Shown here in pieces: positions 6,199 to 52,590 of a stretch of 64,000 nt of DNA. Within the stretch, counting starts at the first letter, position 1, and each line of letters begins with the position of its first letter. A model generated the notes under the pieces. It did not search any database and was not told where the DNA came from. It worked only from the letters and a program-made list of their open reading frames with translations. Source of the DNA: Podarcis gaigeae (taxonomy: Eukaryota); the NCBI GenBank assembly GCA_964106915.2, contig OZ066916.1; one strand, written 5' to 3'. Both the position numbers and the translations under genes were made by a program.

Positions 6199-6705
6199 CT
6201 AAATATAAACTAGATCATGATTTTGGGCCTCTCTTCTGGTCCTCTCCTCATCTTCATCTGATTCTGACTCCAATCTATGACAATTACTGTATTCATATTC
6301 AATAGGCTTGGGATAGCTGTAAGGGTAACCATTGTCATCAAAAAACCTTCGAAATGTAAATTCATAAAAAGCATGTTCAGGATGTTTGCCATTTTTATAC
6401 CACCCATTAAGTGTGTCATTTACATTCCCTTCCTTATCCTCACTCCATAATTTGTCTGGGTCAATTGGATCAAAATTTGATGTGTCTGTGGGATGCGTAA
6501 TTTTAGGGATGTAGGAAGCAGGTTGCTGCCGCAGATCACTTGAAAAATCAATAGATTTAAAAAACGGATGTGCTTTTATCTCATCTGCACCATTCTTGCC
6601 TAAGCGGTCTTCTGGCCCACGGCAGAGCTTAATAATAAGGTCAGATGCCTCTGGCGTTAGTTTTGCTTGCAGTGGAATGTGCAGTGATGTTTTCCAATTG
6701 ATAAC
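6199..6705 (-). CDS. LATS1: LATS1 last coding exon (kinase C-lobe end, AGC C-terminal domain, hydrophobic motif HAFYEFTF)
   Basis: aag|GTT ATC AAT acceptor; VINWKTSLHIP...EHAFYEFTFRRFFDDNG...DLVYI then TAG. Confidence 0.97.
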   Translation of the reverse strand, partial: VINWKTSLHIPLQAKLTPEASDLIIKLCRGPEDRLGKNGADEIKAHPFFKSIDFSSDLRQQPASYIPKITHPTDTSNFDPIDPDKLWSEDKEGNVNDTLNGWYKNGKHPEHAFYEFTFRRFFDDNGYPYSYPKPIEYEYSNCHRLESESDEDEERTRREAQNHDLVYI

Positions 6706-6776
6706 CTTTAGATTAAAAACACAAACAAGTGCAACAAAATTAGAAGACTGTTTCAGTAATAAAACACCTAACCTCA

Positions 6777-6965
<189 letters not shown>

Positions 6966-7333
6966 TCAATATTTCAATAAAAATTCTAGATTTAATTTGA
7001 GAATACACCAGCTATTTTTTTTATTTCATTTTTTTCCATCATGTTTTTCAATTTTCTACTGCATGTAGCTTTATTTTCAGGTCTTAAAAATGGGCTGATG
7101 GTTAGTGATGCTTTTGCATGTGGCACTTTAATGTGTATGCAGTTTGGCTTGATTCAATTTCAAAAATGTTGCTATATTCAATGCTTATATAAATTATTGC
7201 TGAAATGTTATTGAACATAATTTGTTTTGTGGAAAGGCAGCATATTAATTATTATGTAGCAGGACTGTTAAAAGTCAGGAGCTCTATCACACGTAGCACA
7301 ATAATACAAAATTTAAGATCATAAAGTGTCACA

Positions 7334-7386
7334 GTACAGTCGTATTACAATGTTACCTGTACAGTCGTATTACAATGTTACCTGTA
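7334..7386. repeat. Perfect 25-bp tandem duplication
   Basis: gtacagtcgtattacaatgttacct occurs twice head-to-tail, followed by gta. Confidence 0.9.
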
Positions 7387-7767
7387 TGATAAAAACATTT
7401 TGAAAAAATGGTAGGCTCACCAAACAGGGGAAAACCTTCATTGTTCATGTTTGCATTTGTAGTTGAAATGAGAAGCTACCTTAAAAATAGGTGCTTTTTC
7501 TATCCAGGTGTACTTTACCACAAGCAGAGGAATCTATACAATGTTGGATAACTGTAATCTTCCCCTATTAGGATGAAGAGTTCTTCACATGATACACTAT
7601 GTTGTGTTACAAAATATAGCACCATAAATTGTCATTTGTATCACCGTATACAGTCCTGTATTATAGCGGTGCTTCCTTATTATACCAGTTTGCGTTTTTG
7701 GGTAATCATTTTCAGAAATAAGCACCAAATTACTTTGCCAAGGAAAGGAACAACAGGAAACATTTAC

Positions 7768-7950
7768 CTGTCCGCAGCAATACTTCTGGTGCAATATAAT
7801 TTGGTGTCCCAACTAATGAGTGTGCCAGACAGCGCTGGTGCTGACGTGCTGCTCTACGTTCAAGTGGCTTCAACCTGTCTCCACATCTACAGCTTGCTGG
7901 ATCTCCCCATTCATTACTGAAATCCATGCTGTCCTGACGTGGGTGGTCAC
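7768..7950 (-). CDS. LATS1: LATS1 coding exon (183 nt; activation loop AHSLVGTPNYIAPE)
   Basis: cag|GT GAC...ACA G|gtaaat; phase consistent with both neighbouring exons. Confidence 0.97.
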
Positions 7951-8289
7951 CTGCAACAGAAAACATTTTGCAAACCAATAGAAGCAATTGTGAAGGGGGT
8001 GACTGGAAAGCAAAATCTTGCTCATCTTTGCTGTAAATATATTTTAAATGATGTCATTTCACAATAGTCATTAATATTTTTTGAAGTGGGACAAGATTAT
8101 ACAAAAGACATCTAATATTATATAATGGGTGATTGAGACTATCTCTGCTTTGATAATGACTTCACAAAATGTTATGGTGCTCCATCAGGCAGCAATGCGA
8201 AAAACCTGCTAGTAAATACAAGTAAACGCTGCTACTATATATGCTAATATGCAGTAACAAAATGCCATTATTGCAAACGTTTCTCTTAC

Positions 8290-8872
8290 CACTCTGGTAG
8301 TATTTGGAATCATGTGTCCACCGAAAGCCAGTACAAAGCCCAAAGTCAGTCAATTTGATGTGGCCATCACGATCAATCAGAATATTATCTGGTTTTATGT
8401 CCCTATGAATGAATCCCATCTTATGGACACTTTCAACTGCGCAGATCAGTTCTGCTATGTAGAACCGGGCCATATTTTCTGGGAAGACCCCCATTCGAAT
8501 TAACAGACTCATCATATCTCCTCCTGGAATATAGTCCATAACGAAGTATAAATTGTCTTTATCTTGGAATGAATAGTACAAACGAACTACCCACTCATTA
8601 TCAGCTTCTGCAAGAATATCCCGTTCAGCTTTAACATGAGCAACCTGATTCCGAAGTAACACATCCTTTTTACGTAGAGTTTTTGTTGCATATAAGGCAT
8701 TTGTATCCACCTTTCTTGCTAAGCACACCTCTCCAAATGCCCCAATTCCAAGGGTCTTAATCTTAACAAACATTGATTTATCCATTTTTGCCCGTTTCAG
8801 ACGGATGTAGTTAGATTCCTTTTGGCATAACATTTTCCTCATTTGATCCTGGGCTTCTTGGGATAACCCAAC
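8290..8872 (-). CDS. LATS1: LATS1 coding exon (583 nt; MOB1-binding region and kinase N-lobe, HRDIKPDN, DFG)
   Basis: tag|GTT GGG TTA...AGT G|gtaaga; matches ORF 8162..8842. Confidence 0.98.
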
Positions 8873-10937
8873 CTATGCAACAAATATGAAATTTGACAAG
8901 TGAAAAAAAATGAAGAATTGCTCATGGAAAATGTCTACAAACTCAGGTTTAGGACAAGCAAAGCACCAGTCCTTAAATAGGGAAGAATGCCTCGATTTTT
9001 TATTGTTTTAATTTCTGTATTGCAATATGTTAGGAGTCAATGAAAACACTTCAGAACAAATATGACACAAAATGTAGTATTCAGGGATGGTTAAAAGGAG
9101 TGATTATAACAAAGCCATACACTAAGAGCCATGCACAATGAGGCTCAGGATTTAAGGACAATTGGTTTGATGAGGGTCTTGACTGATGAAAATAGGCAAG
9201 CTGAACACAACATTCTGTTACTGCTAAGAGTTTGGGGGACAGGATGGCTATGACTACTTTCCTTCATAGAAATGTTCTTAATAGTCAACTAAAGCTAGAT
9301 CTCATTCACATTTCTTCTATTTACATGACAAGAAAAGTAGTCTTCTCCTGTCAGGATTCAAATCTTACTAAAGAAACTGCACTATTTCTTCCCATGTGAC
9401 TTTCTACCCTTCACTGTTAAAGGACTCAATTTATAATTGTGTTGAACACAATCTTTAGAAGAAAAGGAGGGTGGAAAGTTATACAAATAAGTGTCTGGCA
9501 AAATAAGTAATGAAAGTACTAAATAAACCAGCCACTTTTAAGTATATAGAATTAAGTAAAATACAAAAGTATAATTGTATCATTATCCCTGTGCTACTGC
9601 AGACCATAAATAATTTTATAAAACAGGAAAAGGAAGATTAGTAATCTGATATAAATACATTCAAGTACGGTGAAAGAATACATGCTTAATTCAAATGCAA
9701 GTAAGCATGCAGGGTCCCTAAGAAAGAGTCCATGCTATTCTGTAAATGCAACACTTGTCTCCAAAATATTACTTGCCTACCCAGTAACGAAGGGTAGAGA
9801 TGTCAGGAAAGGTTCCAACACCTTAATAGTTAAATCAGCTGTTAGTGAAAGTGAAAAGGAAAGAGACTAAGAATGAACATGTAGAAAAAACAAGAACTGG
9901 AATTTGATTTACACATCAGTTAGCTTACTATTACATAAAGATACAATTTAACAGGGATATTTTTTGAAAACAAAACTGCACTTCTAAAGAATGTCACAGA
10001 AGCAGAGAAAGGTGGTTCACCCTTGATTCCAGTGAAAGTGTAAACTAGAAATTAATAACATGCAACTGAAATTCCAATGCTTATTTTTAACACAGGTAAT
10101 AAAGGCAATTCCACTGCTTTGTCAAAATATATCTGTCTGTAACAAATCAAAAGAACTCACAACTGATTAAAACAGTTCCTTCCTACGTCACATAATTTTG
10201 GAGCGTATACAGTTGTTGTTTTCTTTCAAAGAGGCCTTTTACATTCCATCAAATAGCTTAACATAAAATTAGCAAGATTAAGGAAAACCCTTATATCTTG
10301 TTAGCCTGTATTCATCACAGGATTTATTAAATCTCTCAGTCTACTGAGTCACTTACTTCTAGGCCCATGTCTGCCACAAAAAATAGCTACAAAGCTCAGA
10401 TTTAGAAGTAATGGTCCTAGCAGAATCAGTGTTGCTAGAGTTTGGGGAAAATAATACTTAATCTCTTTGGCACATTCCTAGGGAAGCTGCCTGCTTCTGA
10501 CTACACTTGTGTATATCCTTGGTTGGGCACATATAAATAAGTTTCCGACTTCCCCATTCCCAACTCTCATGGCATCAACAATTTGTTTCTCTTCTGAGCA
10601 ATAAAGTTGAAAGTCGGCATACTGCATTTTTAGATCACTTGTTTCTACCCATTTTCCAGTGCTTCCTGATTGCATGCATTCCTTTTATAGTTTCTTGAAT
10701 GCACCAACTTGGCTTCAGCAGACATAAGGAGAAAGGTTCTTTTTTTGACCAAGAACCCTGTTTTCAAAAAGTAAGGTAGGCCTTTCCTACAAAGGTATAG
10801 ACAATGGCTAGAGAGCTTCAAGCTCTCCTGTGATTCCAGCCTGATACCCTGACCAGAGCAGCATTATTGCTGATTGTTAGAAGAGCTTTCGATTTTTCAG
10901 GGTTTCCCCCCTGCAAATGAGATTCCTTCCATTAGGA

Positions 10938-11075
10938 CAGGCTTCCTCAACCTCGGCAGCTCCAGATGTTTTGAGACTACAATTCCCATCATCCTGGACG
11001 ATTGGTCCTGCTAGCTAGGGATCATGGGAGTTGTAGGTCAAAAAATATCTGGAGGGCCGAGGTTGAAGAAGTCTG
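10938..11075. mobile_element. hAT-type MITE (138 bp, imperfect palindrome)
   Basis: Terminal inverted repeats caggcttcctcaacctcggc / gccgaggttgaagaagtctg; perfect 8-bp TSD cattagga at 10930-10937 and 11076-11083. Confidence 0.9.
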
Positions 11076-12250
11076 CATTAGGATCTTTAAGCCATTCTTA
11101 TTAGAATTCTCTTGTGCTTGAAACAAAGCCAATTGCTTGGACAAAGCTAATTGCTACATCTCACATCAGAACTTGATGCTTACTGCTTACATAAAGAGAT
11201 ATGTAACAACACCTGTGGTCTGAGGCTGAATTCTACCACTACTACAGTAAAGAGAGAAACAGAGTGAACAACAAAAATCCATAGGACAAAACAGTATCCT
11301 GGAAATGCTGCCCTGGGACTTTAATTGAAGGTGAAAGTATAAATTCTGCAAATATATTCTGGAACTGAATTTGAGATTGTACAGATACAGGTTTGGATCT
11401 TAGGCTCAGAGTCATTTCTGGTAGTCAAACAGCAACTCTGGATCAAAGCCATTTATCTGCTAGGTATAATATTTAATTATTTATTTATAGTTTTCAAAAG
11501 AGAGTAAATGTATAAATGCTGCATTCCTACAGAGCTAGACTATCATCAACTGTGCACATGGAAGAGGTAAGTTAGTAGCATATGTCACAAACGCCTGCTA
11601 TGAAAATGACCAAAAAACCTGAAACAACTCCTTGCAGGAGCTTAAGTATATTTTGCTCATGCAACATTACTTCAGAAACAATTTTTTATAACTTTTCTTC
11701 CTAGACACAAAATACCCAACACATCTACCTTGATACTGTTGCATAATATAATACATATAAGGGAAGCAACTCAGATTCAACAATTATCTAAGTATGAATT
11801 TTGGGGGGCTGTGGCAAATGATAGTATTGCATCTAACAGTAATGGCTGATGTGGTACGCTAGAGCCACAGACTTGTCCTTCAGAAACCAACTCTGCTGCA
11901 GCTTACCTGGATGTCATTGGACTGGAGTGTCAAAAAGTCAATCTGGTACTCCCATTGGGGCATTCATGGAGCCCCAACCTTGCTGATGCTCCACCCAAGC
12001 ACTGCCCTGGTAAGCTGCAGCACTGGTGCTGCCAAGAAGATGGCTCCACAGTTCTAACCCATCACACCAGCTGCTCCTGGCATTTGGGTATGAAAGATCT
12101 CAGATTCAGAGTGTTTGGCCATGAGTAAATCACTGGAGGTCAGCCTAGTTCACCTCAGAGATTTGACACAATGATACAATCAGAAGGCTTGAAAAACATT
12201 CCACACAGAAGCAACACGGAAATAGGAATTAAATAATTAAAAGGCTTTAC

Positions 12251-13746
12251 CCGCATCATTTCATTTTCCAGTTGTTTCTTACGATGGAGTCGCTGCTGGT
12301 GAGATTTCAGTATGTTTTCGACATGCTGCTCCATAAAGAACTTAAAAGCCTGAGGAGAATAGCTCTGAATGCGGGACTCCCTTCTTTCTTCATCTCTCTT
12401 GTTTTTCCTAACAGGGACTGGTGAAGTTGTTATTTGCTTCTTTTCTCTATCCATTCCCTCGCTGTTCTCATTCTTTTCACTTTCTTCTTCTTTAGGGAAA
12501 CTGGGCTGATCCTCTTTGCCAGGCTTTGCAACAGACTCGTAAGGAGTGACAGGTGGATTTGGGTGTAATAAATGCTTTGGGTAAGGTGGTGGTGGACCTT
12601 GATATGTTGGAGCCTCTGGCGCAGGTGACAGGACTGCCATATTTGTACATGGTCCCTCAGAAAAGGAGATGGGTTGGACAGCCTGCATTGGTTGTGACAT
12701 CCAAGAAGGGTGAGTAGGAGCTAAGGCAGTTTGCAACTCTGGTTTCAGTACACGCATGCTTTTTACTGGCTGCTGTATAGGAGCTGGAGTAACAGCAGTT
12801 ACTGTGGTGGCAGAAGTCTGTGAATTGGTAGCATGGCTTTGTCTGCTTCCAAGAGGGTTATTGAAGGAATTTGACCTTACTGGAATATTCGGTTGCCAAG
12901 TTGGAATTTCGTGCCCAGAGGACGATTGGGGCCAGGATGTTGGGATTCCAGGAACATTTATATTGTACAGCTCCATATTATGGCTGTTTCTGTTTGGAAC
13001 CATCATAGACTGAGGGATGTTCCCATTAGGATATGATGGGGCTGCAGAGCCTCCTGCTTGCATTTGCAAAGGTGTGGGGCTTTGCTGGCTTGCCGGAGAC
13101 ATGGGGTAAGGCGGTGGTGGTTGACGATTCGCTGAGTTACCAGGCACAATATTCTGATGAACAATATAATCAGTCTGACAATTGCCATTTTGCATTCCAG
13201 CCCTTCCAGATGAAAAACTAAATTTATTGTTAACTGAACTTTGCATGATGATTGGTTGCCTGCCAACAGGAACAGAACTAATACCTCTTTGTCCCTGTGT
13301 GGAAGGATTCATCGATGATGGATTTATAGGTTGCGGAGGATAGCCATCTTGCCATGCCCCTGGTGGCACTGGAGAAATGCGAGAGATCATATATTCCATG
13401 CTACCAGAATACCGTTTTGTCTGAGAATTTGTTTCCCAGGAAGGAGGAGGTGGAGTTGTTCCTCTGGGAGGTGGAGTTGTTCCCCTGGGAGGTGGAGGAG
13501 GAGGGGTTACACTCCTTACTTGAGGTGGAGGTGGGGGATTTGCTCTTTGTCCATTACCAGGATGAGCCTGAGCAAATCCTGTTATTCCAGAGCCAGACAA
13601 GGGTCTTCCTCCATCAGGCTGAGAAATGGGATTCTCGGAATGAAATGCCAGGCCATCTACCAATGCAGGACCATGTCTCTGAGGCACCAAGGATTCTTTA
13701 GAACCTTTCCAGCTCTGCCTGCGGTTGACTGACTGCTGCACTCCCC
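12251..13746 (-). CDS. LATS1: LATS1 large coding exon (1496 nt; proline-rich region, two PPxY motifs)
   Basis: tag|GG GGA GTG...ATG CGG|gtaaag; contains QPPPPYP, GPPPPYP and RIQSYSPQAFKFFMEQHVEN. Confidence 0.98.
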
Positions 13747-15107
13747 CTATTTGTTTTAAAAAGAAAACAGCAGTATGCTTTTTATTACACAGTGCACTGT
13801 TATTTCAGAACAGGAATTTCACAGGATTAATAAATGTGATGTTTCATGGAAACAGAAGCAAAGTTCAAATATAACTTTGAAAAAACAATATGAATGATTC
13901 ATTTGAGTTTAAAAACATTAATTTAAAAGAACTTACTTCTAGGAATAAGGGGCATGAATTAATTCAAATATATGCACAGAAAAAGACTGGAATATCCTAA
14001 AGGGTTTATACCCTCAGGCATGCTTTCCCCAACCAATTTTTTATTTTTAAAAGTTAAGTTTATTTTCCCTCTCTTGGTTGTTTTGTTGGGAGGCATTGTC
14101 CTTTTTTTTTTTAGGGGGTATTGCCTACTTCGTTTGTTTTATTTCTTATTTGGAATTAAGAGACCTGTCTGGGGTGGGGAGGACTCGAAACATCACAGGT
14201 GTTTCTTCTGTGAAATGGATATTTTGTGTAACTACATATTACAAACAACTGCATGTAACTGAGCCCAAACAGATTTTTTCCCCAAAAGGAAAGCAGCAAC
14301 AGGAGGGCACTATTTTTTCTATTCAGTTATTTATTTGCACTAAATTATTCCTATGCTCAAGAGGCTTTTCTCTCTTTTCTGGTTAATTTCTGAGTATGAT
14401 AGGACAAAGAAACTTGTGGAACTCCACAAAAAAGTCTCTGGGGGAAGGAGGCATTTGATTTTCAGCACAGACATGGCAGGTGGAGAATGGACTAAGCATC
14501 CCTCCCTCTTTCACTCTGAACACTCCTTTCCTGCGGCAGCTTTTCGTTTTTTAAAAAAAGGGTTAGTTATGCACATTGGAATATAATATGTTAAGTGACC
14601 CATTGCTGTAAAACTTGGTCCAGATCTCTATGTATTGTCTTTCTCTGGCTATACCCAGTTTTCCAGATGCCAACTCAAAGGTGGGAGAGAAATGGGGCTG
14701 GAGCTAGCCAGATGAGATGAGGAAGCATTCTCAATATACTTCCCTGGGGCTTCCTGGTGTATTGAGTTAGAATGAAAGCAATAGCAAAAAGACACACGGA
14801 CCCTGTTTCAACAGGCCTTTAATTAAATATCCACTTCAGAAGTTAAATAACACCCTCTCCATCCAACCCGGTGTCAAAATGAACTGAATACACAAAATTA
14901 ATTGAGCTGCAGTAGTTTGCTGTAACACTGTGTAACACTGAACATAAAATTTTATAGCATATATAAATGAAAATGCTACTTTTTAAAAAGTCTTGTCTTT
15001 ATTGTTTGGATGTTGAACTTATCTCTCTGTCCTCTGCCACAAGATTTCCAATCATGGCGGAAGTGGCCAATTTCATTTCTTGTTTCCAAGGCCATATATT
15101 AGAAATT

Positions 15108-26018: not shown

Positions 26019-27309
26019 CCTTCTCAACTTATGAGAGCCTAGTACAACAGTGAGACATGGTCCCTAGAGCCAGCTCCAGTTAGTAGGCTATCAGCTGTAT
26101 TTTATACCAACTGCAGTTTCCAAACAGTTTTCAAAGACAATATACAGTCAAAGTTCAGTATACAGGTTACCAGACCACCCTATTCATTACCTATGAAGTC
26201 CTAAATGGTTTGGTACTTGGCTATCTGAAGGACTGCCTTCCAAAACATGAACGCTTCATTCTTCAGGTCTTGTCCATATCCCCTTGACAAGTTAGGCAAG
26301 TTGCCCTGAAGTTGGGCAAGTGGTAATGGGAAGAGGATTTTCTGTCACAGTGCCTCATATATTAAATGCTCTCCCAGGGAAACTTTCCTAGTGTCTACCT
26401 TAATTTCTATTTGGCGTCAGGCAAAGACTTCATTGCCAATATGTTTCAACATACTTTGTAGATGGTTTTAAGTTGTTATGACTGCTAAATTTTATGTTTT
26501 TTATGGGTTTTATTATTGGAAATTATATTTTCTATAGTGTTTTACGCTTCTCTTGGAGTCTTTCACCAAAGGGCTGCCTATAAATAAAATACAGAGTAGC
26601 GGCAGCATGGGCAAAACCACTGTTCTTCAGGTGCAACACATGTTATGCTACATAATGCAACACATTATTTCCTTCTCTTCCCCTGGCTCATCTCTGTTTT
26701 TATAATTCATTTGTAAATCAACCACTTGATTTCAAGGGGATCTCTTCCACCCAACTTTCAAAATTTGAGCCTTTCATTCTAGCACCTTCTTTTCTACATT
26801 TGTGTGTTCCCTTCAAGCACTACCAACCTTTCACTTCCTTTATCAAAGCAGTAAGTCACTGCTGAAAGTTTCATTCCCCAAACAGAGTGATTGTAAACAT
26901 ACCACATCACCACACCAACTTGGAAAATTGGCACCAGATACTGTACTGCTTTCACCACAGAATTCCTTTGAGATTTCTAGTATATGTATATATTTCCTCC
27001 CTCCCCACATTAACCACAGATGGGATAGCAGAGGAACATTAGGCCAGTTTACGAACTTGAAATGTAGATATTCCCAAGTTTTACTGCTCTGTCTTAATTT
27101 GGCTAGAGACACAGCACATTAGAAATAAACAGAAAATGCCAAACTGAATATCACAACAGAAGAACTCTCTGAAGATGAGCAGACACAAAAATGTAGTAAC
27201 ATCTATGCTTGATAAGCCCATGTTGTCCCATGCTTTTCCTTTACACTCACTCCCAAGTCTACTGACAGAAGATAAGCTCCTTCAAGTTTCTCAAAAATAG
27301 GAAATTTAC

Positions 27310-27432
27310 CTGTATGAAGGAATGATTTTCTTTCAGACACGTCAGTAGAAACATCCCAGTGCCACAGAGCTCCATCTTCCGAACAAGTGAACAGATGATC
27401 AGGATTGGAGGGATGAAAGTGAACTTCCCATA
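27310..27432 (-). CDS. NUP43: NUP43 exon 7
   Basis: cag|TA TGG GAA...ACA G|gtaaat; WEVHFHPSNPDHLFTCSEDGALWHWD (WD40 repeat). Confidence 0.95.
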
Positions 27433-28317
27433 CTGAACAAGTAAACAAATTTTATTGAAATATACACTAATCTGGACATAATAAAGATACTATATAGCAT
27501 GAAGGCGTGCAACATTTTACAATAATAGACTACGATTAGAGGCTGTCTAATACAATGAGCCTAAGTAGAACAGAAGCTTGAATTTTTACAAAGTAGACTC
27601 ATACATATATTTTTTCTATGAACTACCAAATGATTTTGAGTATGCACACTGCCTCTGGAATAGAACCCTCACATGGGGTGTGATTGTAGCTTTTCCTGAT
27701 ATGAGATTTTATTGAGAAAATACAGTGAAATCTCTATTGTTCCCTCTCGAGCACCTTATGAGGGCATTCCACTGCCTAGACTATGTTCCCAAGTTACAGT
27801 TGCTACGCTCTTGTATATTTTGTAAAATGTGTCGTAGTTTCTGTGCTAGCTCTCTTGTCTCCCAGCAGAACAGAGGGTGACTGTACCGGGAATAGGTTCT
27901 ATTTAAGAATTTTGTAATAAATTCTCTTATTTATTCATTCATGTTCTGGAAGGGCTAATTCCCTGATATGAATACACACACATGCTCCTAGGGGTCCCTT
28001 GCAATGCTACAATTCTATTACAGTACTCTATGAATCTGGGGACCCAATGTTAAGAAAGGCTGGCTTAGAGCAATTTCTCTTTTACCTCATAGCTCGTATA
28101 CATGGACACACCACAACCATTTGAATAACTGGAGGTTGTACAGACCTCCCAAACATATACCCATGTATATGCCAAGGAGGAGAGATACAAAGGTCTATTG
28201 AGCTCTATGGAAATCCTGCCTCGCCCAAGTACTGTACTCATGTGTGGAAGGCTTGTACCTCTAGTTGTTGACATGAGGACAGGCGCAAGAATTACGCCTG
28301 TTTGTTTCGGTACTTAC

Positions 28318-28469
28318 ATTCTGCGTCATGAGCATTTAGCAAGGAAACTGGCATGCCGCCTTGTCTTACATCCCAAATACTCAACATTCCATCTTGGCTG
28401 CCTGTGGCTACAATGTGCTGCTGACTAGGGTGCCTATCCACACAGTGCAGTGGAACTCTTTCCCCTGTC
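28318..28469 (-). CDS. NUP43: NUP43 exon 6
   Basis: cag|G ACA GGG...GAA T|gtaagt; LHCVDRHPSQQHIVATGSQDGMLSIWD. Confidence 0.95.
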
Positions 28470-28593
28470 CTGCAAGGCAAGAGGAACACACATTTTAATG
28501 GGGAATCAAACAGGCTGTAATCCAGGAAGCAAATGACATTTAGCTATAGTGCTTGGCTTTAACATCATTCCTTATCCGAGAGTACATACTTAC

Positions 28594-36449: not shown

Positions 36450-37760
36450 CTATGTGCCGCCGCCGCCGCCACCACCACACGACAGAAAGCGTTTTGCGTC
36501 CAGCCAGGCGCGTATGTTGCGCTTTGCTCCCTGCCGGCGACGCTGCGAGACTTTTCATCCCCTAAAACTCAGCTCTGCCTCAAAAGCCTACCCACATTGC
36601 ACTGCAAATAAAACTGCAAATGTGCCTTATAGGCCATGCCACGGTTATTTATAGCCCGACAGGAGAACCAGTCACATGCTTCCGTTTAAAGGAGCAGCCA
36701 GCTTCCCACAACCTCGGCTGCGAAGCCCCTCGCCGTCCTCCGCAACCCCAAGAACCCAGCCTCCTACTCCGCCCATCACCAAGAGGTTCCCCCCTTCCCG
36801 GCCCGCTCCCCTTTATTCCATGTACTGCGCCTGCGCACACCAGCCGCGGTTGCCCGGCGGCGGCGCCCGTTCAGAATGTCGAGCGCGCGGGGGGGCGGGG
36901 GAGCAGCCCCTCCCTCCGGCGGACGCGAGGCGGCGGCAGCGGCAGCTGCTGCTGCGGGAGGGAAGGAGGCGGCGCCTGTGTCGGCGCTGGAGGTTGTGTC
37001 CTTCCTGGGGAAACTGCTGTGCGCAGTCGCGGCACTGAAGGCGGCTCTCTACCTGCTCCGCAGAGTCTGTCTAGCTATGGCCTGGAAGTCAGGAGGCGCC
37101 AGTCACTCCGAGCTCATCCACAACCTCCGCAGTGAGTGCGTCTGTGGTGTGCGCGCTGGGGCCGGTGGCCAAGGAAGGGGGTGGGAGGAGGAGGAGGCAG
37201 AAGGAGGGGCCAGGGCGCGCGCAGTCCATTCATGTACCACACATACACAAGCGCGCGCGAACCCCGTCGCTAGGGAGTGACCGTTAGTTGTCGGCCCTCA
37301 GAAGCGCGCGCTGGGGTGCCTTCGCCAACGGCCTTCGCGCCTGGCGGCTGCTGGAGACGTGGGCGGGTGGGAGGTCGCGAGCACCGCGAGGGGGGGGGGA
37401 GAGAAAAGAGAGTCCCCGCAGTCGAGCGGGTGTGTCTCGGTGCGGCGGGAGCTTGCTTGAGGGCGGTGGCTGCTGTCGCCACTACTGGAAGAGAGCAGGG
37501 CTGAGTCCCTCCGCTGTTTCGCAAGCGGGGAAGCGGCAGCCTCGGCTGTCCACCCAGCTTCGCCGCTGGGCCCGGCAGTCGTGGTAGAGGTGCCTCTCTC
37601 TCTCTCCCCCTCTCTCTCCCGGTTCCGTTTCCGCTTCCCGCGTCTTAAGGGGGAAGGCAGCTAAACGGCCGGCTCTCAGCTGTGAGCATCGCGCATCGGA
37701 CCTGCCAAACGCCCTTTTAATATAAAATAAATAAACATTATGCGGGTTACCTACTGCAGC
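36450..37760. promoter_or_regulatory. PCMT1: CpG island / PCMT1 promoter and exon 1, with NRF1-like site TGCGCCTGCGCA at 36826-36837
   Basis: Very high GC and CpG content around PCMT1 exon 1; GC boxes. Confidence 0.85.
37077..37131 (+). CDS. PCMT1: PCMT1 exon 1 from the canonical ATG (protein-L-isoaspartate O-methyltransferase)
   Basis: MAWKSGGASHSELIHNLR; donor CGC A|gtgagt. An in-frame upstream ATG lies at 36876 (see findings). Confidence 0.97.
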
Positions 37761-42520: not shown

Positions 42521-44072
42521 TTATTATCTTAGATGTTGCATAATTATTTCTTCTGCAAGAATATAGTTCTGCAATCCACAGAAACAGGGACAAGCCTTAA
42601 TTAGTTTAAAGTGAGGTAAGGAAGCTGGACCAAGAAGCAAATATTGCTAAAGCAATATTTTAAGGAATTGGGACCATAGAGGTACTGTATTCTAATAATG
42701 AAACACGGTTATCATATCTAGTTGCAAATCTATTTTTATGCTGTTTCAGATGTACGCTGAAGCTTTTCTCATTTGTTCTTCTAAAAAATGGGAGGTTAGG
42801 AACTGGTTGACCAAAAAATAAATAAAACAACACACTTATTGAGGGGGTGGGAACCAGCATGACTTGGTCTCAGCGCTAAACATGTGCTGATATAATGCTT
42901 GTCAACAAAGGTACCATAGTCCCAGCCACTAAATCAGTAATCAAGGCAGGCAGGAACTGGATTGTACATTGTGGATGTTAATTCAATTTTTCCTCATTGA
43001 CAACTATGCTGAAATAAGATTAGAAGATACACTCTCAGGGTAAAGCCCCATCTAGAGTTCACATACTGTATTTTCTTTCTGAAAACTGTGGCACATTTTT
43101 CAGAGTGTGGAACTGAAGAGACTCAGATGTGTTGATACACATTGGATTTGCTAGGCTTTATATAACTCAAAGAGCTGCAGTGGTCTATTCTTTGCTGTGT
43201 TAGAACAAGTATAGCTGAATTTTGGTTACATGTGTTCTCTGCTGCAGTCCCATTCCTGCCTGTATTTCAGTGCTCTATGTGCTTAGCTGCTCTGCTAAAG
43301 AAGAACTTAGGAAATGTGGCACATAACCTTAGCAAGGGGGAGATCAATCCAGCAACAGTCAATCACAGGCCAAAGTCCTAGATGAGGAATTTGTCCAAAC
43401 AGGCAAGACTAATATTTGGCCCACCCCAAAATTCAGGTTTTATCTGGAAGCACTTACACCCAGGCCATCTCTAGAATAACAAAGGGACTGGCAGGGATAG
43501 GATAAAGCGCTTTCCCCACTCTGAACCCTTAAATAGCTGACTGTAACAATAACATCAGCACTATGCAGTCCAGAAGACTCATGGTCCAACTCCTAATTTA
43601 TTTTGACAGTGGGTTTTCATAGTAATGTTGAAGTGATGAATTTCAGCTTCCATAATTTGCAGATAAACTAACATGGGCATAATGTATATCACTGCTGTAG
43701 GCTATATTTTAAAGTAGCATCTTCCTGAAGTTCCCCGATGTGAGTTGGTTCACCTCAGAGCCGCTGAAGAAGGGAAAAGCCAAAACATTTTGCTATAAGA
43801 AAGTAATCTCTTTTTTATAATCTCTTTTGTAATAAATATACTGTATTGTTTCAGTAATTAACTCAATCCTTCCTGGATTCATAGCAGACATTTGCATTAC
43901 TGTTTGATGCTTGAAAAATTCTCTCCTATAAACTTTTACAACTGAGCATTACATCAGTTGACTGACCACTTGTGTTTTTTTCTGAAGACTGTGGTACATT
44001 TTATTTTGTAGTTTCAGTATAATGGTATTGTGGAATAATATTCCCTTATATTTTGATTTGCCTTTCTTCCAG

Positions 44073-44177
44073 AAAATGGAATAATCAAGTCAGATAAAGT
44101 ATTTGAAGTAATGCTTGCAACAGACCGCTGCCATTATGCAAAATGCAACCCATATATGGATTCTCCTCAATCAATAG
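44073..44177 (+). CDS. PCMT1: PCMT1 exon 2
   Basis: cag|AA AAT GGA...ATA G|gtatga; [34 protein letters not shown]. Confidence 0.97.
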
Positions 44178-44490
44178 GTATGAAAATTATGTATTCAAAG
44201 TCTTTAACGATGACTAAAAGCTTTATTTTCCTAAGGCCTTGTTGTGTTGAACCAAAGGTGAACTGTTCCAAAAGTGTTGCAAATGCTATCTCGGTAGTCA
44301 AGATAACTCCACAATTAATTGGTGGTTGTTGTAGCAATGATTTGCTCTTGGAAACTGTTTCTTTGTCATTATAATTCTTCAGAAATGATATATCTAAGTC
44401 CTCACTTGTTGTCTAGCAAAGGTGCTAATGTTGAACATTTTGATAAGTGAGCTGTTTTGTTACTCATATCATTCTTTAAATGTTTTATAG

Positions 44491-44522
44491 GATTTCAAGC
44501 AACAATCAGTGCTCCACACATG
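44491..44522 (+). CDS. PCMT1: PCMT1 exon 3 (32 nt)
   Basis: tag|GA TTT CAA...ATG|gtaagc; FQATISAPHM. Confidence 0.96.
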
Positions 44523-44663
44523 GTAAGCGTTATATTTATATTCTGTCAGCCTGACTCCTTTAACAACTAAACTTTCATTTTCCTCTTTCTACCCTGATGA
44601 AACACCCCAGTGTAGTACATGGTGGGGGGAACCCTAATGCTTATCCCCCACACCCTTTTTAAG

Positions 44664-44822
44664 TTACAGATAGGTAGCTGTGTTGGCATGCCATAGATAC
44701 ACTGAAACTGAAACAGTTTCATTGTTTCTGAAGAAGTGTGCATGCACACGAAACCTCATACTAATGACAAACTTAGTTAGTCTCTAAGGTTGTACTGGAA
44801 GGATTTTTTTTGTTTTGTTTCG
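44664..44822. mobile_element. Penelope-like element pseudo-LTR remnant with hammerhead motif
   Basis: Flanked by the 12-bp direct repeat accctttttaag; contains CTGAAGA-agtgtgcatgcacac-GAAA. Confidence 0.7.
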
Positions 44823-45494
44823 ACCCTTTTTAAGGATACTGTTAGTTGTTAGTGGTTTGAGAAGGTAGGTTTTTTTCTCTCCCTCATGTTTTTCTTTGTG
44901 GGTGGGGTTGGCTTCCAACTGTGACACCTGTTAACATTCCATATCATAGTTGCTGTCAATAGTAGACTTGATTGATAGATTCACAGTCTGCCTGGCACAA
45001 GTTTCTTTTGAATGCTTTTCTGTCTTTCTGTGTCTAGGCTCATTCTGTAAGCTCAATAGATTTTATTAGGGTTTATAGAGAAAAATACAAAACTTAATAG
45101 CAAATATTAAGCTCATTATTAACCTTTGGGGGTCCTAAAAGTTATTTTTTATTTAGTAACATATTTCTGTGTATCCTGGGCTTGATCCTCTGAACTGTTA
45201 TTGTGTAAATGGACAATTCTGAAATCAAATTTGGGTAGATAAAGGGTTTGGGGATCTTTCTACATTTACAAATTGACAGTTGACATACTTATCTTTATGT
45301 GGTTTGAAACTGCAGCTGTTAAATTGTGAAATTGTTTGATATCTATAACAGCTTGATTGAGTTCAGTTACTGGATTCTCTGTAGGGAATTGCATAGTTTG
45401 AATTCTTTATGAAAGAACATAAAATCATAGCATTGTACATTGGGCAAAACCAAAAATAAAATACCAACATCTTTTCCTTTTTTCCTTCGGTCAG

Positions 45495-45599
45495 CATGCA
45501 TATGCTCTAGAACTCCTATATGAACAATTACATGAAGGAGCCAAAGCCCTTGATGTAGGATCTGGAAGTGGAATTCTTTCTGCATGCTTTGCACGAATG
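45495..45599 (+). CDS. PCMT1: PCMT1 exon 4 (SAM-binding motif I, LDVGSGSG)
   Basis: cag|CAT GCA TAT...ATG|gtgaga. Confidence 0.97.
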
Positions 45600-47230
45600 G
45601 TGAGAGGACAATTCTTAACCACTTACAATAAATATATGACTCTTGTTAGGTTTCTGTGTGCATTACAAAATGCTTTATTTTTTATGTCTTTACAGGAGAA
45701 TTGCAAGGACTTGATTCTGATATTATTTTATACTTTTAGAAGGATAGGTCTTTTTGGGTACCTTTACAGCAATGCCTTACTGTTTCAATAAAGTCCAGCT
45801 CATAAACTTCAGTAAAGAACATGAAGCAATACTAGCTCAAATCAGCTCATATTTTTGTTTTTTGTATTTAATGCCACCTAATAGTTGGATTGAATATTTT
45901 GAAGAAAGAACAGCCTATGAAGTATGGAAGTACTCCATTCTGGGGCAAGTTCCTGTGTAATGCTTAGTAATTATAACCTGAAAAAGGATGCTTTAAAACA
46001 GGGCTAGGGATCCTCAGGGCTAAGGGATCCCTCCAGACCTCTCTGTCTGGCTTTTGGGACTCTCTCCCAGTGAAGCCCATCCTCAGACCTCACTGGCCCT
46101 GCTCTGCACCCTCCTTAAGTGCTTTTACCTTGCTGGAATATGCATTGTGAAAATGCCTCTTGTCTGCCTGAGTAGAAGATGCAGAGATGTGTAGAAGCAT
46201 TTGACTTGTATGTGGCTGGAATAAAGCTTACTGTACAAATGTAAGAATTGCATCCATTGCTCTGCTGACTTTTTGCCTTCGGCCCATTGACCATCAGCAT
46301 GCAGGTTCCCCAGAAGGTTTCTCATGAGGCATTCATGCTGCAAAATGTTTCACATCCCCACTTCATTATCTTCCTCAGTGATTTTTCTTACTGATCATGT
46401 AAGAAAGCAAGCAGGGGTGTGCAGGATTTTCTGTTTCTATTTTCTTTTGCAGAGTGTGCGATGTGTATGACATGCCATTAATATAGAAGTAGAATCCAGA
46501 CTCTGCATTCTTTTTTTAACATCAACTTGCAACATGGAACACACTCTTATTTTTTTTAAAAAACCCACCATATTTCTTTCCCATAATCTTGTAAGAAAAT
46601 AAGAACTGCCAAGGTCCATCTAGTTCAGTATTCTTTTTCCAGCTAGTGGCTTCTTTCCATCATCTCAGTATATCTTAAGAAACCCTGAACTTTAAAAAAG
46701 TTGCCTTGTCACCTGTGTAATCCTGCTTAGGAGAATCAGCAGTCAATACTAGTGCTGAATAGATTATATTCTATTATATTTCAAATGCCAATAGAATGTT
46801 AAGTTTAAAAAAAAGTTCTGTACATAACAAAATAAGTTGCTATTCATGTATTTCATAGTAAAACTGCTAACATGCAGCACTGGTTTGAGGCCTTAAAATA
46901 TTCATATCTTCTTGGAATGTTAATTACAATATATTAATATGAAAAAATATATTGGGAAATGACTTCGTAAGTATGGACCATGAGAAACTCTAAAGTATTT
47001 ATGGCAATAACTTTATTAGAAGAAACTTGCATGCCAAACATTCTAAGGCAAAATGGATGTGGTGAAACTGGGGGAAGAGAAACAGATAGACAGATAATAG
47101 GAAAACCCCGTATTAGGTTTTATCCTTCATCTCCTGTAGCCTTTGCTTATAACTTCAATTGAAAGTAAAAGTAAGAAACTGAATACATACATAGTACATT
47201 CCATACCAAAATAAACTTGTTTTGTTTCAG

Positions 47231-47351
47231 GTTGGTCCCAAAGGACAAGTTGTAGGAATTGATCATATCAAAGAGTTGGTAGATGACTCAATAAATAATG
47301 TTAAAAAGGACGATCCCCTATTGTTATCTTCAGGAAGAGTGAAACTGATTG
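47231..47351 (+). CDS. PCMT1: PCMT1 exon 5
   Basis: cag|GTT GGT CCC...ATT G|gtaagt; [18 protein letters not shown]. Confidence 0.97.
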
Positions 47352-48070
47352 GTAAGTACTGGAGTATATTAACAGTAAAAAATAGGTATAGGAATATGCT
47401 TGTTCAATGCAGGGTCTTTTTGTAGTAGGTTTTCTATGAAATATAAACAACTAGAATAGTTAGGTTTACTATCCAACTTATATAATTCTATTTATTATGT
47501 TTACTTTTTGATGGGGTTTTTTAAACAAAAACCTTCCAAGCCCACTAATAACTTCATTTTCAGTTACATGTGCTTAGGTCTGTAATATTTTGCAAGCCAC
47601 TGTGCTTAGTGACCAGGTCATGGGATCTGATCTAAGAAGTTTAGCGTTGGCACAGAGAGTCATAGTCTTTCAAACTGGGTTTCATTTGTGGGTCCACTCT
47701 GTAAAAGTGTTTCCTCTTTATGGCACTGCAGTTGCACAAGAGCAGAAATCACTAGGAGCCCTTTCCAATCCTCATATACAGCTGCCTTTTGTTGTGTCCA
47801 CATCTGGCTGCATTTAGTGAACTACTGCTGTTTGGTACTAATTCCCTGGAACCCAGGTCGTTCATTCCCAGTAGAAATTTGTTGGGAATCTGATTAAAAT
47901 TTAGGAGGCTAATTATGGTTATTTTTAATTTCAACATTTTTTTGCTGGTTCCACATAAACTCATAAACTTAGTTAAGATTTCATCTATGAGTTCAGTGTC
48001 TTGAATAAGCCGAGGACAATATGAAGTCAGCTTTTCCTCATCCTTGTATATATCTTTTCCCCCCTTGTAG

Positions 48071-48156
48071 TGGGAGATGGAAGGTTGGGATATTCTGAAG
48101 AAGCTCCATATGATGCTATTCATGTAGGAGCTGCTGCACCAGTTGTTCCCCAAGCA
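48071..48156 (+). CDS. PCMT1: PCMT1 exon 6
   Basis: tag|TG GGA GAT...GCA|gtaagt; [22 protein letters not shown]. Confidence 0.97.
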
Positions 48157-48772
48157 GTAAGTGATTTATACATATATATGGTACATATTGTTTGCTATGA
48201 TTTTTCTTTATTAATTGAAATGATTAATTGGATGCTTATACCTGCTTTAAACGATGGGCTTTTTAATTAGATTTCATTAAATGAAACACATTCCAACAGT
48301 GGAATTTGATTTGGTATACTAATAGGTGATGTTGATGTTTTTTGGAATTGGGAGTGCTGGTGGTTTGGAAATGAAAAGCTTTGCACAGTGCAGGCCCAAA
48401 TCCCTTTTAATTTTGTCAAGGCAAATAAAGACTGGGGCATTCCAAACTATCCCCTCTCTTTTTACCTGTTTCCAGAACTTAGCTTCCAGCAATTTTTCAG
48501 GGGGAAGGGCTAGAACTGTGGGCTGTGTCTCAGACCATTAGGCCTAAAAGCTCTTACCATCAAGGAGTATAATTCTTTGTTATTTTACATTGTACAAGGT
48601 AGGGATCTTAGAGTTGTATCCAACTAAGTAATTAAGACTCAAAAGCAGGCCCATTGAAATTAATGGACCTAAATTAGTAATTTCCATTAATTTCAATGGG
48701 TCTGCTTTGAGTATAACTAACACTGCTTAGGAGTACACTTGCTGTGAATAATTAACTTTTTTTAATTTATAG

Positions 48773-48952
48773 CTTATAGATCAATTAAAGCCTGGTGGAA
48801 GGTTAATATTACCTGTTGGACCCGCTGGAGGAAACCAGATGCTGGAACAGTACGATAAGCTAGAAGATGGCAGTGTCAAAATGAAGCCTCTGATGGGAGT
48901 GATATATGTGCCTTTAACAGATAAGGAGAAGCAGTGGTCCAGGTGGAAGTGA
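48773..48952 (+). CDS. PCMT1: PCMT1 exon 7 (isoform ending -RWK; total CDS 684 nt, 227 aa)
   Basis: tag|CTT ATA GAT...[12 protein letters not shown]...KQWSRWK then TGA; two candidate donors, after 48942 and after 48995. Confidence 0.96.
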
Positions 48953-51900: not shown

Positions 51901-52577
51901 TTTCTGGTTTGTGGATAGGGAACTATAGCTGAAGCAAAGTAACTAGTAGTTCAAACCCCCTCGGCAAGTCCATGACTTGAACTGAACTCCTCAGATTTAA
52001 GTCTACCATATTGCGGGCCAACTAGACTTCAAGTGCAGATGCAGACCCTGTTTCCTTTTCAAAAAAACAAATTAGCATTAAGAGGCAATGAAAAGCAGCA
52101 GGAGTAGTTGAAGAGTTTAAGCCTCACAAACTCAATGCCTTGTTTGCCCCAGGGTGGTCTGCATTCCTCTGGACAGAACAGGGTCTCCCTGTTCACTGGA
52201 TGGGGAGCCTGTTATCAACACTGTGAAGTCTAATTTTGAACTTAGGTTTCACATTTTGCAGCCTTTGGTGCAGGTTCCAAGAATAACTGGACTATAATGG
52301 CAAATGAATCTACAGTATATGGTTTACAGAGAGCCAAGGCATTCTATTCTTCAGTAAAAAGGTAGACTTGTGATTTTACAGCTAATGGTATTTTAAATGA
52401 CATTGACAGAAGCATAGGAGGTATTTTTGCTTTGATTTATGTGCACTACTAGTTTGATGTTCTTGACCCTTCTTTTGGCTTAAGTACCTTAACAGGCTTA
52501 TGCAATTTTGCTGCAGTATCTGAGAACGAGTTTAATTTTGAGGAGTTAAACTTGTAATTTTTGTCCTCTTTTTGCAG

Positions 52578-52590
52578 GGATGAAATGTAA
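52578..52590 (+). CDS. PCMT1: PCMT1 exon 8 coding tip for the alternative isoform (-RDEM); 3' UTR continues to AATAAA at 53348-53353
   Basis: Pyrimidine tract + tttgcag|G GAT GAA ATG TAA; joins exon 7 donor TCC AG|gtggaa in phase. Confidence 0.82.

Follow-up and report, generated by a model that had tools for sequence, protein, structure and literature searches.

Does PCMT1 encode only the soluble repair enzyme for which it is known, or also a longer form that carries an N-terminal membrane anchor? The question is raised by exon 1 of PCMT1 in a 64,000-nucleotide stretch of Podarcis gaigeae DNA (GenBank assembly GCA_964106915.2, contig OZ066916.1; hereafter the window), in which an upstream ATG precedes the canonical start in the same frame. 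The product, PIMT, has been studied in depth as an enzyme of ageing and brain protection and is treated as a soluble 227-residue protein. Our analysis indicates that the N-terminal extension is a real feature, older than originally proposed, and that two enzymes probably arise from PCMT1, namely the soluble PIMT of 227 residues, which is abundant, and a minor, predicted long form that is anchored. The helix at the end of the extension is kept from sharks to humans, which argues for a real long proteoform. The parts of the exon 1 region are listed below.

36876..36878, + strand: upstream in-frame ATG, start of the long form (Met upstream in 173 of 181 homologues; 0–2 reads per run over the ATG).
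36876..36977, + strand: Gly/Ala-rich linker, residues 1–34, variable in length and predicted to be disordered (29% mean column identity; predicted local distance difference test (pLDDT) score 43–51 for residues 1–30 of the monitor-lizard protein P0010).
36892–36900, + strand: GC box within the linker DNA (pattern match).
36978..37076, + strand: conserved segment, residues 35–67, a predicted single helix that continues into the canonical Met (76% mean column identity in 38 jawed-vertebrate sequences).
36987..36989, + strand: CTG (Leu38), proposed as a second start, not conserved (Leu 29, Trp 5, Val 2, Ala 2; n = 38).
37014..37058, + strand: hydrophobic core Leu47–Leu61, with Lys55 in tetrapods and Thr in fishes (Kyte-Doolittle mean 2.06, range 1.53–2.71; n = 38).
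37022..37027, + strand: initiator-like element within the helix-coding stretch, with the main mRNA 5' end at 37023–37026 (tagged reads).
37059..37070, + strand: basic C-terminal flank with Arg62 and Arg63, and conserved Cys65 (Cys in 37 of 38).
37077..37131, + strand: canonical ATG and remainder of exon 1 (splice donor GT at 37132).

Re-reading of the window sequence bore out the original prediction as to the frame. ATG 36876 (A at -3, T at +4) and the canonical ATG 37077 (G at both -3 and +4) lie on the + strand in one frame, 67 codons apart without a stop, and the closest in-frame stop on the 5' side of ATG 36876 is TAA 36687. The Gly/Ala linker with its Ala9 run, the hydrophobic segment at 36990–37076 and CTG 36987 were all found as described. 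Openness by itself is weak evidence, since 1163 of 5000 sequences obtained by dinucleotide shuffling of the extension (72% GC) keep the frame open (23%); an open frame combined with a 19-residue hydropathy window of at least 1.94 occurred in one shuffle of the 5000. The exon 1 region is a CpG island, its exon-1 stretch is single copy in the genome, and the nearest homologues are lizard proteins. The near-identical P0010, which served as a stand-in for the spliced PCMT1 protein of the window in the Pfam, Foldseek and AlphaFold2 analyses, established the identity of the gene: it matches Pfam PCMT (PF01135) with an E value of 7.8e-86 and superposes on the human PIMT structure 1i1n with a root-mean-square deviation of 0.7 and 92% identity.

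Three protein searches, with the helix region of the window, a salmonid one and a skate one as queries, gave 117, 84 and 11 matches, respectively, and 181 distinct proteins in all. The segment occurs in sharks and rays, bichir, sturgeon and paddlefish, teleosts, coelacanth, frogs, axolotl, caecilians, turtles, crocodile, birds, squamates and eutherians. It had been proposed as an amniote feature; amniotes do have it, but every major group of jawed vertebrates that was found has it, cartilaginous fishes among them. The 181 listed proteins include none from marsupials, monotremes, jawless fishes or invertebrates, and the sensitivity of the searches is limited, so that the missing jawless-fish and invertebrate matches do not mean absence. 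An in-frame Met lies 30–76 residues before the canonical Met in 173 of the 181 homologues, a few of these being gene-caller starts at non-ATG codons, and seven of the remaining eight are models that begin without Met. The distance between the two Met residues is about 37–42 in fishes, 58 in eutherians and 58–76 in reptiles and birds.

For 38 sequences, chosen as one or a few from each group with preference for full-length models, column identity averages 29% over the linker, 76% over the final 33 residues of the extension and 91% over the enzyme. Apolar positions changed to charged, Pro or amide residues in seven of 59 distinct substitutions, compared with 33% expected under random nucleotide change (p about 2e-4, for sequences that are related and were found by similarity). 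Residues 35–49, encoded upstream of the main mRNA start, include an invariant Glu. The human segment given for comparison at the outset is that of RefSeq NP_001238980.1 letter for letter, including the deletion of one codon. The suggestion that CTG 36987 offers a second start was not supported: its column has Trp, Val or Ala in nine of the 38 sequences (Trp in the aligned mammals, Val or Ala in some fishes), and the upstream Met is the one that is kept. A close relative, organism A, differs from the window by four fixed differences in the linker, three of them at third codon positions, and none is listed in 36960–37131.

The prediction that the extension ends in a hydrophobic or amphipathic helix is upheld by the alignment and by AlphaFold2, which describe a conserved, helix-forming and membrane-anchor-like segment. 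The model of P0010, which has the same helix, was built on a 121-sequence alignment (mean pLDDT 90.7) and contains a disordered linker, one helix at residues 39–70 (32 residues; pLDDT 93–97 for 41–60) and a normal PIMT fold; it supersedes a model on the 38-sequence alignment with pLDDT 59.5. Hydropathy on the Kyte-Doolittle scale is 2.06 for the 15-residue core and 1.87 for a 22-residue span, and the best 19-residue window scores 1.94 in the window sequence and 1.51–2.23 across the 38. In fishes, the core is a 15-residue uncharged run between Lys/Arg and Arg-Arg. The five residues that follow the core carry a net charge of +2 in 28 sequences, +1 in nine and -1 in one. By the positive-inside rule, such a basic flank would keep the C-terminal enzyme on the cytosolic side.

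We consider it somewhat probable that the long form is a minor, upstream-started PIMT whose N-terminal helix serves as an organelle-membrane anchor, with the catalytic domain facing the cytosol; this form is predicted. Rarer upstream transcription starts would include ATG 36876, and because this ATG has T at +4 despite its A at -3, leaky scanning would also give the short form. The helix would function as a signal anchor that is not cleaved, the positively charged flank behind the core would hold the enzyme on the cytosolic side, where S-adenosylmethionine (SAM) is available, and the anchored PIMT would repair isoaspartate in proteins at that membrane. A membrane-anchored PIMT, or one in another compartment, had been suggested at the outset. 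The anchor-like extension supports the first part, whereas for the second a cytosol-facing anchor is likelier than a lumenal location, with a C-minus-N flank charge difference of +2 or more in 35 of the 38 sequences.

As to the membrane concerned, Kanaji 2000 (PMC2192658) reports that moderate hydrophobicity (1.97–2.16 over 18–20 residues) with a positive charge at most five residues after the segment leads to the outer membrane of mitochondria, with an N-in/C-cytosol orientation, and that higher hydrophobicity sends an N-terminal anchor to the endoplasmic reticulum (ER). The 15-residue core of PCMT1 falls within this range and the 22-residue span below it, tetrapods have an internal Lys, and the positive flank is present in 37 of the 38 sequences. 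The DeepLoc-based table in the supplement of Ly 2025 predicts the annotated human PCMT1 to be in the ER and a truncation to be localised differently, which is a prediction of location, not proof of translation. The Kanaji rule thus points to the mitochondrial outer membrane and the table to the ER; we lean slightly to the former, and both assignments are tentative.

An ER location also enters a different explanation, built on the C-terminus of the enzyme. PCMT1 has the following downstream coding parts in the window.

44066..48952, + strand: downstream PCMT1 coding exons at about 44066–44197, 44490–44530, 45492–45602, 47225–47350, 48064–48156 and 48767–48952, ending in -RWK.
52578..52590, + strand: predicted alternative last exon with an -RDEM end, an RDEL-type isoform (acceptor AG 52576–52577; the junction is a predicted one).

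The -RDEM ending also occurs in the Anolis models P0016 and P0020, and RDEL and RDEM ends are found in 32 and two of the 181 homologues, respectively. An in-frame 'RDEL' at 56.9 kb was put down to chance, and the exon at 52.58 kb is the likely one instead. Were the N-terminal segment an ER-lumen entry signal (a type II anchor or a cleaved signal), the long form joined to the -RDEL/-RDEM exon would be an ER-resident repair enzyme, and the puzzle of the RDEL tail would be explained. The ER prediction for the annotated human form fits this, as does the statement in Soliman 2021 (PMC7859441), where the RDEL motif is noted, that no signal is predicted on the short zebrafish proteins; the same source holds that extended isoforms may exist and that the targeting of PIMT is unresolved. 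The paralog described below also pairs a hydrophobic leader with xxEL ends. The flanking charge, however, indicates a cytosolic C-terminus in the 35 sequences mentioned above, and the position preceding the canonical Met is not restricted to small residues (Ala 16, Ile 11, Thr 4, Met 3, others 4; n = 38). This position and the charge after the core are not those of a cleaved ER signal peptide, although a cleavage site could lie after Met-Ala. Moreover, all 19 cartilaginous-fish PCMT1 models listed end in -RWK or -KWK and none in -RDEL, while 18 of them carry the helix; together with the charge pattern, such models with the helix but without RDEL argue against import of PCMT1 into the ER lumen by the helix. 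We also know of no established SAM supply in the ER lumen. On balance, we judge this explanation decidedly improbable.

A better candidate than the PCMT1 long form for an ER-luminal PIMT is, as far as sequence comparison goes, the paralog PCMT-like. In the same genome (contig C1, 42.74 Mb; L006:1501-1613), this gene encodes a hydrophobic leader of 19 residues ahead of its own canonical Met. Among 38 models, five lacked a start motif; of the 33 with a recognisable start, 32 have a hydrophobic leader, shorter than that of PCMT1, and 21 have xxEL ends. Skates, catfish, tarpon, snakes and a bird retain the leader, often with RDEL, RGEL, QDEL, GHEL or GGEL ends; some splice forms in fish have a Cys cluster at the end instead.

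Transcript starts were examined in four raw-read runs (X21–X24) and one contig run (X1) of organism A, from two studies; X1 contained short unrelated pieces only. The identity of the Smart-seq3 5' tag was taken from 10.1101/817924. In the single-cell run X21, of which about 6% was read, 75 tagged reads begin at 37023, 37025 and 37026. This main mRNA 5' end sits on an initiator-like CGCAGT within the helix-coding stretch (by match to an initiator pattern), and the tagged ends at 37023–37026 show, in this one run, that a short mRNA starting downstream of the first AUG is present. Read depth in X21 is about 174 at 37066–37102; at the canonical start, it is about 174, 38 and 22 in X21, X23 and X24, and at 37001–37013 about 22, 27, 2 and 2 in X21, X22, X23 and X24, respectively. 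Roughly an eighth of the reads originate upstream of the main start. Reads at 36918–36963 derive partly from another repeat-bearing locus and were discounted, a stricter likeness being applied for the upstream depth. The end of exon 1 was located by reads whose match to the genome stops at 37131 and which go on into exon 2 sequence (140 in X21, 41 in X23 and 27 in X24). Since the main 5' end falls within the stretch that codes for the helix, most mRNA encodes the soluble 227-residue enzyme; the short mRNA dominates, and in these runs the long form is minor.

Several points weigh against a long, anchored PIMT. Reads over ATG 36876 number 2, 1, 0 and 1–2 in X21, X22, X23 and X24, which is not above the intron-1 background of 0–1.5. 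The upstream tagged ends 36897, 36925 and 36960 (three reads each, X22) all lie downstream of this ATG. These ends may be early template switches, and GC-rich 5' ends are under-recovered in reads; if they are real caps, the mRNAs lack ATG 36876, and only GTG 36978 or CTG 36987 could start a helix-bearing form. The mean BLOSUM62 score of the substitutions does not stand apart from the neutral model, whose null matched the observed median in 34%. Models of 227 or 228 residues also exist for many birds and fishes. Kim 2018 (PMC5983485), from a leading PIMT laboratory, remarks that the database numbering assumes an unused initiation codon, and the 5,072 rows in which Ly 2025 tabulates HeLa genes with more than one detected start do not include PCMT1. 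Finally, tetrapods have a Lys in the middle of the core, so that their longest uncharged run is eight residues, compared with 15 in fishes; this is as compatible with a helix lying on a surface as with one that spans the membrane.

The points on reads, substitutions and annotation favor the explanation that the extension is not usefully translated: the DNA would be kept as core promoter, initiator and 5' untranslated region (UTR), and gene predictors would simply extend to the first in-frame ATG. The main start and the initiator-like element do lie inside the conserved stretch, an open frame is common among the shuffles, and frameshifted copies are invisible because the homologues were found by protein similarity. 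Residues 35–49, however, are conserved although they are encoded upstream of the main start. In addition, the in-frame Met is kept at 30–76 residues despite a linker that varies in sequence and length between groups, and the hydrophobic character is kept. The stretch is accounted for neither by RNA structure (z +1.27) nor by any Rfam family, and long antisense ORFs do not explain the conservation. We therefore regard this explanation as improbable.

The Lys in the tetrapod core bears on another alternative, in which the long form is made but its helix lies on a surface or binds a partner (a lipid droplet, a membrane surface or a specific protein), or is a degron, instead of spanning a membrane. 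Conservation exceeds the needs of a plain anchor, with 11 of 29 columns at least 85% identical; the hydrophobic moment reaches 0.69 in the second half of the helix, and the conserved Cys beside basic residues could be acylated. Fishes nevertheless retain the unbroken uncharged core, the moments of the two helix halves point in different directions, and neither a Pfam family for the extension nor a look-alike in the ESM Atlas was found. This alternative appears unlikely, and the cytosol-facing anchor remains the form that we prefer.

Beyond these searches, a profile of the helix was compared with 147 new family representatives and matched only two of them, both PCMT1 sequences of amphibian type. 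Vertebrate exon-1 DNA was also sought in two metagenome scans: of 611 pattern matches in one, none was confirmed, and the 118 matches in 80 loci included no PCMT1-like sequence. N-terminal additions of other kinds also occur in non-vertebrate PIMT representatives, P0189, P0204 and P0201 among them. Among 54 family representatives with a locatable start, 34 have at least 15 extra N-terminal residues of varied type, many of which may be mis-predicted starts, and only three of these extensions, two of them vertebrate, reach the hydropathy cut-off.

The region upstream of ATG 36876 contains one further candidate promoter element.

36826..36837, + strand: NRF1-like promoter motif (regular-expression match; such a match is no evidence of function).

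Out-of-frame ATGs at 36620, 36676 and 36820 open frames that overlap the extension (36620–37135 and 36676–37038, + strand), and a transcript beginning far upstream would reach all three before ATG 36876. On the minus strand, at about 6200–13800 and 27200–28550, lie exons of a protein kinase (Pkinase, Pkinase_C) and a WD40 protein that point away from PCMT1; the order kinase, WD40, PCMT1 fits what we take to be LATS1-NUP43-PCMT1.

The extension is already annotated in RefSeq and UniProt models. Human RefSeq has long N-termini in isoforms 1–5 and short ones in isoforms 6 and 7, which derive from another 5' UTR according to PMC7696048; accessions NP_001238979-81 are long and NP_001347381/85 short. 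The long human variants imply a capped mRNA in which the first AUG is included. No experimental work on the vertebrate long form turned up in a literature survey that did not cover older papers on PCMT1 promoters and on membrane-bound carboxyl methyltransferase, and PMC13084699, PMC13626670 and PMC5462536 added nothing on it. If the long form is real, human variants in the 58 extra codons, where the supplement of Ly 2025 has four missense entries, could affect one form only. It would also bear on how PIMT reaches membranes and on the purpose of the RDEL tail. A wider picture is possible, though we would not call it probable: all jawed vertebrates, humans included, would make an unrecognised organelle-anchored PIMT from the upstream start, a second paralog (lost or unannotated in mammals) would enter the ER by its own leader, and isoaspartate repair would be compartment-targeted in animals as it is in plants. 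These forms would then be the source of the RDEL tail, long unexplained, and of the mitochondrial defects that follow when PIMT is lost.

The closest parallel among known systems is the MB-COMT/S-COMT pair, in which, according to PMC6162781, one gene with two promoters encodes a methyltransferase that depends on SAM and has about 50 additional residues at its N-terminus; these include a membrane anchor and leave the enzyme on the cytoplasmic side. The corresponding arrangement, an upstream in-frame AUG that adds a hydrophobic segment, is present in PCMT1. MB-COMT, however, has been shown as a protein and is abundant in the brain, whereas the PCMT1 long form is predicted and minor in the runs seen; the PCMT1 helix is Ala-rich and has a mid-core Lys in tetrapods, and we claim no sequence relation between the two. 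Arabidopsis PIMT2 belongs to the same enzyme family and acquires targeting sequences at its N-terminus through alternative transcription starts and splicing (PMC3847293). The plant forms described there are imported via a chloroplast-targeting peptide, whereas the vertebrate segment looks like an uncleaved anchor. The human long isoforms (RefSeq 1–5, NP_001238980.1) have the orthologous 58-residue extension with the same helix; they are a matter of annotation and prediction, the linker of the lizard is longer and rich in Ala, and the basic flank is one codon shorter in mammals. With Tom20-type signal anchors of the mitochondrial outer membrane, the segment shares moderate hydrophobicity and a positive charge directly after it, whereas the 15-residue uncharged core of fishes is shorter than the 18–20 residues tested, and tetrapods have the internal Lys and an N-terminal linker of 35–45 residues. 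With its extension already in database models, and with MB-COMT and plant PIMT2 alike, PCMT1 is not a new kind of system: it would join enzymes for which one gene provides a short form and an N-terminally extended one.
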